Part shown: positions 2,448 through 2,479 of the stretch, one piece after another
How positions within the stretch are numbered: position 1 is the first letter of the stretch
How the letters are laid out: every line of letters begins with the position of its first letter
Sequence record: OM386661.1
Reading direction: 5' to 3' (one strand)
From: Escherichia phage vB_EcoM_ESCO45
Length of the DNA stretch: 64,000 nt
Program-made: the position numbers and the translations under genes
Notes under the pieces: generated by a model
What the model was told of the DNA's origin: nothing
What the model saw: only the letters and a program-made list of their open reading frames with translations
Databases searched by the model: none

Positions 2448-2479
2448 GTTCCAGTAGACAAATCCCTTCTGGAACGCCA
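2448..2479 (+). other. tRNA-like minihelix (acceptor-stem hairpin + GCCA), possible tRNA remnant
   Basis: Perfect 7-bp stem GTTCCAG/CTGGAAC, 14-nt loop, then G-CCA; same 5' acceptor strand as the tRNA at 4563. Confidence 0.4.

Follow-up and report, generated by a model that had tools for sequence, protein, structure and literature searches.

The tRNA array of a Felix O1-like phage contains, directly behind its first gene, a short hairpin that ends in GCCA as a tRNA does. Is it a processed small RNA, a misread gene or the remains of one? The window, by which we mean the whole stretch of 64,000 nucleotides of Escherichia phage vB_EcoM_ESCO45 (OM386661.1) that was analysed, carries this hairpin at 2448-2479, on the + strand like tRNA-Pro, the predicted promoters, the other three scars and the elements at 3403-3484 and 3239-3363 described below. 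The first array gene, tRNA-Pro(TGG), lies at 2364..2440; it is intact, has an encoded CCA and is called by both ARAGORN and Rfam (57.7 bits). Its CCA is separated from the hairpin by a 7-nt spacer, AATTAAT (2441-2447). We conclude, with a probability of roughly 0.93, that the hairpin is a neutral pseudo-tRNA scar: the dead leftover of the Felixounavirus tRNA-Glu(UUC) gene after an internal deletion of 46 bp.

Form and fold of the hairpin

Direct reading of 2448-2479 confirms the hairpin as the first-pass annotation had described it. A perfect 7-bp stem, GTTCCAG (2448-2454) paired with CTGGAAC (2469-2475), closes the 14-nt loop TAGACAAATCCCTT (2455-2468) and is followed by G2476 and CCA (2477-2479). 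The RNA is predicted to fold with -11.6 kcal/mol (z = -4.5), a stability reached by 0 of 200 dinucleotide shuffles, and the predicted fold comprises the 7-bp stem, two weak pairs in the loop and nothing more. This stability is no product of chance; it goes back to the acceptor stem of a genuine tRNA. The generic pattern of a perfect 7-bp hairpin followed by NCCA occurs three times on the + strand of the window (shuffles: mean 1.0, maximum 5); at about three times the shuffle mean, but inside the shuffle range, the count does not discriminate alone.

ARAGORN finds 18 tRNAs in the window and makes no call at 2448-2479; in a permissive Rfam scan of 2000-7000, no family overlaps the hairpin even at E ≤ 10. 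A canonical tRNA missed through indexing, the reading against which the first-pass annotation had cautioned, is ruled out for this genome by the silence of both programs. Of the features of a canonical tRNA, the hairpin keeps the 7-bp acceptor stem, the discriminator base and the 3' CCA, and it is missing the D, anticodon and T arms (46 nt relative to its orthologue).

A consensus scan places two sigma-70-like promoters directly upstream of tRNA-Pro: TTGACA-17-TAATAT at 2218-2246 and TTGACA-18-TAAAGT, with an extended TG, at 2308-2337. With these predicted promoters upstream, the scar is probably co-transcribed with the array.

Origin and descent from tRNA-Glu(UUC)

The genome is that of a Felix O1-like phage (Felixounavirus). 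Megablast of 2200-4700 returns 327 phage records, mostly Felixounavirus, which are myoviruses of Escherichia, Salmonella and Shigella. Many of them align in several pieces, so that the tRNA arrays must differ by insertions and deletions. In radambza, VpaE1_ev108 and Felix O1, a tRNA-Glu of 77-78 nt begins 7-8 nt after tRNA-Pro. When the window and ESCO50 are aligned with radambza and VpaE1_ev108 (alignment A1), one clean 46-column gap falls in tRNA-Glu and the sequences are otherwise identical: tRNA-Pro is 100% identical across radambza, VpaE1_ev108 and ESCO50, the flanks of the scar are likewise 100% identical, and every residue around the gap is invariant. Felix O1 and 59 other records match the scar flanks at 100% with a span 46 bp larger. 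The earlier view of the hairpin as a tRNA whose D, anticodon and T arms are deleted is literally right, and the comparison of arrays that was suggested along with it finds the slot intact in related phages, where it holds a full tRNA-Glu(UUC).

The 32 nt that remain of 78 (2448..2479) are the first 15 and the last 17 nt of the intact gene, the encoded CCA included, with no mismatch; in tRNA numbering they are positions 1-15 and 60-76. Positions 1-11 occupy 2448-2458, a single CAAA at 2459..2462 marks the deletion junction, and T60 with the 3' strand of the T stem, CCCTT, follows at 2463-2468. The 3' strand of the acceptor stem (2469-2475), G73 (2476) and CCA (2477-2479) complete the remnant. 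The intact gene contains CAAA twice, in the D-arm region as GTAGA-CAAA-ATGG (positions 12-15) and in the T loop as GGGTT-CAAA-TCCC (positions 56-59). Of the D arm little is left in the scar; the anticodon arm, with its anticodon TTC, is gone entirely, as are the variable loop and the T-stem 5' strand.

The 46 bp were probably lost between these two 4-nt repeats by recombination or replication slippage, in an ancestor shared with ESCO49, ESCO50 and ESCO56. Such a deletion brings the two acceptor strands together across the 14 nucleotides left between them, and a 7-bp hairpin with G73 and the encoded CCA behind it results automatically. The hairpin-GCCA form is accounted for as the automatic outcome of an intragenic deletion, and G73, G1-C72 and U2-A71 are the acceptor end of tRNA-Glu.

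A different parent had been proposed, tRNA-Leu(CAA) at 4563, of which the hairpin would be a decayed paralog. That gene does begin with the 7 nt of the 5' strand, GTTCCAG, and the next two bases (TA) are shared as well. The 3' end of tRNA-Leu(CAA), however, reads TTGGAAC-A-CCA and not CTGGAAC-G-CCA, whereas all 32 nt of the hairpin are collinear, without a mismatch, with the ends of the tRNA-Glu that sits in the same slot. Nor is intact tRNA-Glu especially close to tRNA-Leu(CAA): the two are 67% identical, compared with 68% for tRNA-Cys or tRNA-Gly. We reject descent from tRNA-Leu(CAA) as next to impossible; the scar is the orthologue of the Felixounavirus tRNA-Glu(UUC).

How widespread is the shortened gene? 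A 94-nt query containing the intact gene matches 201 phage records over its full length at 96.8% identity or more, and three only in part (ESCO49, ESCO50 and ESCO56). The same three are the only matches of a 48-nt megablast query centred on the junction and built so that neither half alone seeds a match. The short allele therefore occurs in 3 of about 204 records; the exact 32-mer has no match in IMG/VR and none in a collection of metagenome contigs. In the other Felixounavirus loci that we fetched, tRNA-Glu is intact in 12 of 12. Judged by this distribution, the full-length tRNA-Glu is the widespread, ancestral allele, from which the short one derives.

The three carriers in the database stem from a single French study, in which they were obtained from horse dung and propagated on E. 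coli DH5a. This common history is what speaks for a sequencing or assembly artefact, or for a laboratory deletion during propagation on DH5a. Against it, the allele is shared by four separately assembled genomes that differ in sequence and in tRNA content. The carriers differ from the window and from one another by 1-3%; ESCO49 still has Lys-Met-Ile plus another Lys, and Ala and Gly are missing from ESCO56. From this divergence and these unlike tRNA sets it follows that the deletion is older than the separation of the carriers, and the odds of an artefact are negligible. Elsewhere in the genome, a 12-kb region of replication genes has its best matches in ESCO56 (97.3%) and ESCO50 (96.9%), the next records reaching at most 94%. 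That the nearest relatives of the window are again ESCO56 and ESCO50 fits one inherited deletion event. As far as these genomes indicate, the short allele is a single event inherited by one natural sub-lineage and no assembly artefact.

Does the scar retain a function? Without an anticodon arm, decoding would be impossible, and the host presumably meets the demand with its own tRNA-Glu; GAA and GAG account for 6.6% of the codons in the long ORFs of the window. Glutamate identity in bacteria is associated with the anticodon. For one bacterial GluRS, it is tied to core features, namely an augmented D stem and the absence of nucleotide 47 (PMC9976931). Since the scar has none of the glutamate identity features of D stem, core or anticodon, charging is not expected, and the gene appears to be dispensable. 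Its transcript may simply be shortened as a spacer would be.

RNase P and CCA-adding enzymes are able to act on minihelices of acceptor and T arm in vitro. The first-pass annotation had accordingly considered a processed minihelix or decoy directed at these enzymes. In this reading, the hairpin-GCCA would be kept as a substrate processed by RNase P, as a competitor or as a decoy; its targets might be the CCA-adding enzyme, RNase P or a tRNA-targeting host nuclease, or it might serve the upkeep of tRNA-Pro 3' maturation. The acceptor stem is still perfect, G73 and CCA are in place, the 5' leader native to tRNA-Glu persists, the fold is stable and promoter-like sites lie upstream. The T stem-loop, however, is destroyed: the 5' strand of the T stem is deleted and 7 bp are left of 12. 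The form of the hairpin needs no selection, as it follows automatically from a repeat-mediated deletion, and its conservation is not above background. The scar shows 0 substitutions among the four carriers, but so do the flanking ~170 nt, in genomes that are 97-99% identical; with the adjoining sequence equally invariant, the invariance of the scar gives no sign of constraint and is weightless either way. Finally, the allele is confined to one small sub-lineage and missing from IMG/VR and the metagenome contigs. No evidence speaks for selection on such a processed hairpin or decoy, and we consider a kept minihelix of this kind, whichever of these roles it would have, very improbable.

Synthetic acceptor-stem minihelices and microhelices are substrates for some aminoacyl-tRNA synthetases (PMC9976931). 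Like these molecules, the scar has a 7-bp acceptor helix, a discriminator base and CCA. In classical minihelices, however, the T stem-loop is stacked on the acceptor stem to give 12-13 bp, whereas the scar has a broken T stem and a 14-nt loop in its place.

The sequence behind the hairpin, GCCAGTTTT, also raises the question of a fortuitous intrinsic terminator or attenuator that would modulate read-through into the rest of the array. The hairpin is stable and a run of four T begins 5 nt past the stem; yet this run is brief and lies away from the stem, G-C pairs account for just 3 of the 7 in the stem, the site is absent from the list of a terminator scan, and an identical trailer stands behind the intact tRNA-Glu of relatives. 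Termination here is even less credible than a kept minihelix.

Deletions across the tRNA array

Block-wise comparison with relatives reveals three further deletions in the array. The first of these leaves a second scar at 3161..3183, which consists of the first 23 nt of tRNA-Lys(TTT) and has its junction at 3180-3183, in a GATG repeat. Here a deletion of 240 bp, with GATG at both edges, took the rest of tRNA-Lys(TTT) together with tRNA-Met and tRNA-Ile; ESCO49 retains Lys-Met-Ile. A third scar, the junction of an 83-bp deletion at the repeat TGTACCAAA (4139..4147), marks the loss of a whole tRNA-Lys unit between tRNA-Leu(TAG) and tRNA-Ala. This tRNA-Lys is still present in radambza, VpaE1, Felix O1 and ESCO49. 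The fourth scar (4638..4644) is the junction of an 81-bp deletion at a CCAATTT repeat, which removed the tRNA-Arg that follows tRNA-Leu(CAA) in VpaE1.

Direct repeats of 4-9 nt are found at all four deletion junctions of the array, that of tRNA-Glu included. A single 4-nt microhomology could be coincidental, and the argument rests on its recurrence at four junctions: such a pattern is typical of replication slippage or microhomology-mediated repair, which we infer as the mechanism. HNH homing-endonuclease genes sit in the tRNA array of relatives, and their products may supply double-strand breaks that promote such deletions. With at least four repeat-flanked deletions, the array would seem to be eroding and reshuffling within the genus. 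Published Felixounavirus genomes carry 17-23 tRNAs (PMC8300805), a range consistent with continuing gain and loss.

Two known cases are instructive. Fragments of prokaryotic tRNA genes mostly owe their origin to integrating genetic elements or to CRISPR activity and retain a single gene end (PMC9897764). The scar resembles them in being partial and non-decoding, in lying beside intact tRNA genes and in belonging to a class that automated tools miss or mislabel. It differs in that it keeps both gene ends without the middle, and it is for this reason that it folds as an acceptor-stem hairpin. The second case is the tRNA cluster of phage T4, in which deletions end in short sequences that recur between or within tRNA genes and leave the phage viable on standard hosts. 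These T4 deletions are laboratory-selected and usually remove or fuse whole genes. The end points of the scar lie in short repeats too, but its deletion is natural, intragenic and fixed in a small wild lineage. The scar itself is ordinary: an internal, probably microhomology-mediated deletion of tRNA-Glu, private to one Felixounavirus sub-lineage.

Other elements of the array

Three more places in the array had been singled out as possible tRNA remains, and their fates differ. The T-arm-like hairpin at about 2844-2860 gives no sign of tRNA ancestry. It sits in the 69-nt spacer between tRNA-Asn and tRNA-Tyr, a spacer that is conserved in Ounavirinae only (106 records), in none of whose 106 records a tRNA is annotated inside it, and that is deleted in radambza; the fold of the hairpin is modestly stable (z = -2.6). 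At 4487-4561, where partial degeneration had been suspected, tRNA-Val does have four substitutions absent from Felix O1, VpaE1, radambza and ESCO49, one of which, T27 to C, breaks pair 27-43; but the gene is still called by both ARAGORN and Rfam (45.4 bits). Mild decay of this tRNA-Val is possible.

The element at 3403-3484 had also been taken for degenerate. It is the opposite: a strongly conserved, non-canonical tRNA-Arg(UCU) backed by covariation. The Rfam tRNA model matches 3403-3481 with 33.4 bits (gathering score 29). In this alignment the acceptor, anticodon and T arms are normal, the 15 model positions of the D arm are reduced to 4 nt, and 20 nt are inserted after the anticodon arm. 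The acceptor stem (3403-3409 with 3474-3480) is followed by U8-A9-U10 (3410-3412). A D-stem-like helix, 3413-3415 with 3442-3444, encloses the anticodon arm (3417-3433), whose loop CTTCTAA carries the anticodon TCT at 3424-3426. Next come a conserved CGTTAAC (3434-3440), the D-loop-like TAAGTGGAGTAT (3445-3456), the T arm (3457-3473), A73 (3481) and CCA (3482-3484). VpaE1 has a canonical tRNA-Arg(TCT) in this place; the two genes are exchanged almost precisely between gene start and CCA, and their flanks are identical.

By blastn the element is present in 262 phage records. At ~85% identity it recurs in unrelated groups: Klebsiella Sugarland-like phages, Justusliebigvirus, Vequintavirinae/Mydovirus, Asteriusvirus jumbo phages, Kuravirus, one member of Straboviridae and Streptomyces Karimacvirus. 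Its annotation in these groups is none, tRNA-OTHER or tRNA-Undet. Pattern scans of IMG/VR add ~95 contigs; among the genomes of 185,579 species, the element is on one contig, a 36-kb MAG contig. An nhmmer sweep collected 106 copies, 79 of them distinct.

The structure was tested on a gap-free alignment of 83 columns with 59 distinct copies (alignment A4). Standard pairs form in 94.7% of the cells of the proposed structure, compared with 63.8% in shuffled and 33-47% in slid versions; 19 of 21 pairs change on both sides (shuffled mean 13.9), and the covariation score is 0.789 (shuffled 0.194). By any of these measures, 0 of 500 shuffles reach the observed value. Covariation supports the acceptor, anticodon and T helices, and the anticodon loop has 7 nt with U33. 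It further supports a new helix of 3-4 bp, columns 11-13(14) with (39)40-42, in which pair 11-42 is an invariant C-G, pair 12-41 is UA, AU or GC in 39, 10 and 10 copies, and pair 13-40 is CG, GC or UA in 47, 7 and 5. This helix carries the sequence of the D-stem pairs 11-24, 12-23 and 13-22, yet it closes around the whole anticodon hairpin, and the 12-nt D-loop-like UAAnUGGAGUAU is placed after it. A conventional D arm, with a stem closing the D loop 5' of the anticodon arm, is missing. U8-A9-U10 and GGAGUAU are invariant among the copies. The single-sequence fold of 3402-3483 is cloverleaf-like but no more stable than shuffles (z = 0.18); it is on covariation rather than on energy that the structure rests. 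The structure of the element is conserved.

The anticodon is UCU in 58 of the 59 copies and CCU in one; a paralog of the same layout in a 247-kb phage (L059) has ACG, and every anticodon found is therefore one for Arg. Bacterial ArgRS recognizes A/G73, C35, U/G36 and A20 (PMC9976931, Table 1). Of the 59 copies, 55 have A or G at position 73 and all have C35 and U36, and the invariant GGA could furnish G18, G19 and A20, though in a different context. AGA is the commonest Arg codon of the window (39% of Arg codons), and in the stretches examined, the large tRNA sets of phages with the element include no canonical tRNA-Arg(tct). These observations suggest an AGA decoder. That 3403-3484 is a functional, AGA-decoding tRNA-Arg of undescribed architecture, which replaces the canonical tRNA-Arg(UCU) across unrelated phages, is a serious candidate reading to which we give slightly less than even odds. 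A literature search, incomplete in its coverage, found no earlier description of such a tRNA-Arg.

The closest known counterpart is the D-armless mitochondrial tRNA-Ser(AGY/GCU), which is aminoacylated and used (PMC9976931, PMC4394434). Both are without a conventional D arm, and in both the anticodon helix is effectively extended and the connectors are short. Unlike the mitochondrial tRNA-Ser, the phage element keeps a helix homologous to the D stem around its anticodon hairpin and carries Arg anticodons only, and it would need to work with bacterial ArgRS, EF-Tu and ribosomes. Its rearranged form may offer an escape from nucleases or other factors that recognize the normal shape of tRNA-Arg.

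Next to this gene, 3239..3363 resembles the coding domain of a tmRNA. The Rfam models tmRNA (18 bits) and tmRNA_permuted (22 bits) align the tag region with high posterior probability but below the gathering score of 47; across the scans the element reaches 18-28 bits. The tag frame GCA AAC GAC AAT GTT TTT CTG GCA GTA GCT (3248-3277) encodes ANDNVFLAVA and is followed by the stop codons TGA TAG (3278-3283) and then by covarying helices. It has the features of a tmRNA tag, with a GCA start, a hydrophobic, Ala-rich tail, stops and structured helices behind them, and it resembles the tag of E. coli tmRNA, ANDENYALAA. The core 3239-3363 matches 611 phage records; they include Kuttervirus, Taipeivirus, Carvajevirus, Cedarrivervirus, N4-like Ithacavirus and Erwinia Kolesnikvirus. 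In 7 unrelated phages the reading frame of 10 codons persists, with synonymous changes, and the two helices downstream of it covary through compensatory changes. Tags in other phages read ANEEMYLAVA, ANDNTFLAVA, ANDDVVLMAA and ANDAQFLAVA. Neither ARAGORN nor Rfam detects a tRNA-like domain with paired ends, T arm and CCA; ARAGORN finds no tmRNA, and the sole T arm found by the Rfam tmRNA model belongs to the adjacent tRNA-Arg gene. A search of the literature for phage tmRNA in Felixounavirus or Ackermannviridae, again of incomplete coverage, returned nothing relevant.

The scar explains a puzzling hairpin and shows that the phage has lost tRNA-Glu. With the other three junctions, it gives a base-pair-level record of how the Felixounavirus array shrinks, in four deletions between repeats of 4-9 nt. 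For annotation, such pseudo-tRNAs should not be counted as genes, and their existence bears on the dispensability of individual phage tRNAs. The two elements found alongside could matter more than the scar. A tRNA-Arg with a rearranged core and the identity marks of Arg would, if true, show by natural experiment how much rearrangement ArgRS, EF-Tu, RNase P and the ribosome accept. ARAGORN misses most examined copies of it, detecting just three, as an oversized gene of 94-98 nt, and phage tRNA repertoires may therefore be under-counted. Many virulent enterobacterial phages carry a tag-coding domain unaccompanied by a tRNA-like one, which invites the question whether, and in what way, phages tap into trans-translation.

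A tRNA-Arg(UCU) family of unusual architecture

The element at 3403-3484, called degenerate in the first-pass annotation, belongs to a family of non-canonical tRNA-Arg(UCU) carried by unrelated phage groups. Its members occur in comparison loci L001-L111 (coordinates local to each locus), for instance at L007 208-286, L009 202-283 and L006 ~2951-3032. The family has conventional acceptor, anticodon and T arms, but its D stem, formed by pairs 11-24, 12-23 and 13-22, surrounds the anticodon hairpin; 3' of that stem lies UAAnUGGAGUAU, which resembles a D loop. Across 59 distinct copies, this structure shows 94.7% pairing, with covariation at 19 of its 21 pairs; A/G73, C35 and U36 are conserved. 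In the window, the non-canonical gene fills the slot that a canonical tRNA-Arg(TCT) occupies in the related phage VpaE1. Most of the copies examined are undetected by ARAGORN, and we found no account of the family in the literature searched.

In several unrelated phage arrays, ARAGORN also calls tRNA-??? with two-base 'anticodons' (L015 928-997 and 2598-2672; L017 262-337; L059 1770-1845). Arrays with such calls contain the non-canonical tRNA-Arg as well, and they may hold further non-standard tRNAs.

A tmRNA-like coding domain

A tmRNA-like coding domain lies at 3239-3363. Its tag frame (3248-3277), closed by two stops (3278-3283), encodes ANDNVFLAVA and is followed on the 3' side by covarying helices. 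The domain is matched by 611 phage records from many families, with ANDNTFLAVA, ANDDVVLMAA and others among the tags; in loci L112-L117 it lies at ~300-420. Its Rfam tmRNA scores fall below thresholds, and a tRNA-like domain is undetectable in the element at 3239-3363. In VpaE1 and radambza, another relative, a TTGACA-17-TATAGT promoter stands upstream. The -35 box is gone from the window, taken by a 240-bp deletion.

Scars, repeats and atypical genes in the array

Besides the remnant of tRNA-Glu(UUC), the array bears three more deletion scars, each bounded by a short direct repeat. The 240-bp loss (3161-3183; GATG repeat) left a 23-nt 5' stump of tRNA-Lys; 83 bp, and with them one tRNA-Lys, are gone at 4139-4147 (TGTACCAAA repeat), and 81 bp, with one tRNA-Arg, at 4638-4644 (CCAATTT repeat). 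The tRNA-Asp found 3' of tRNA-Tyr in relatives is missing.

Another tRNA-like element, without annotation, spans 3628-3712. Its ends resemble an acceptor stem (GGGACG/CGTCCC) and lead into ATGCCA. The element also contains GGGG-TTCAACT-CCTC, which looks like a T arm, and a hairpin, AACGG/CCGTT, whose loop, CTTCCAACA, is 9 nt long; the sole Rfam match is a weak one to tRNA-Sec (17.6 bits).

The spacers 3' of the tRNA-Glu scar (2477-2563) and of tRNA-Met (2645-2723) are diverged direct repeats, sharing CCAGTTTTGACAGAAGACCAATTACAGCAA... (78% identical) and AGATTTGGTCTGGTCAT (82%); ACGGTCTGGTAAT recurs at 3003-3015. One possibility is that they are promoter or processing modules internal to the array and were copied along with their tRNAs.

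All three ARAGORN tRNA-Leu calls (4069-4145, 4563-4640 and 5304-5382) measure only 77-79 nt and therefore have no long variable arm of the kind usual in bacterial tRNA-Leu, so that their acceptor identity is uncertain. The tRNA-Val(TAC) gene (4487-4561) carries four substitutions absent from Felix O1, VpaE1, radambza and ESCO49, including C32 to A and T27 to C, the latter bringing the number of C-A mismatches in the anticodon stem to two. These changes may represent the early decay of one more member of the array.
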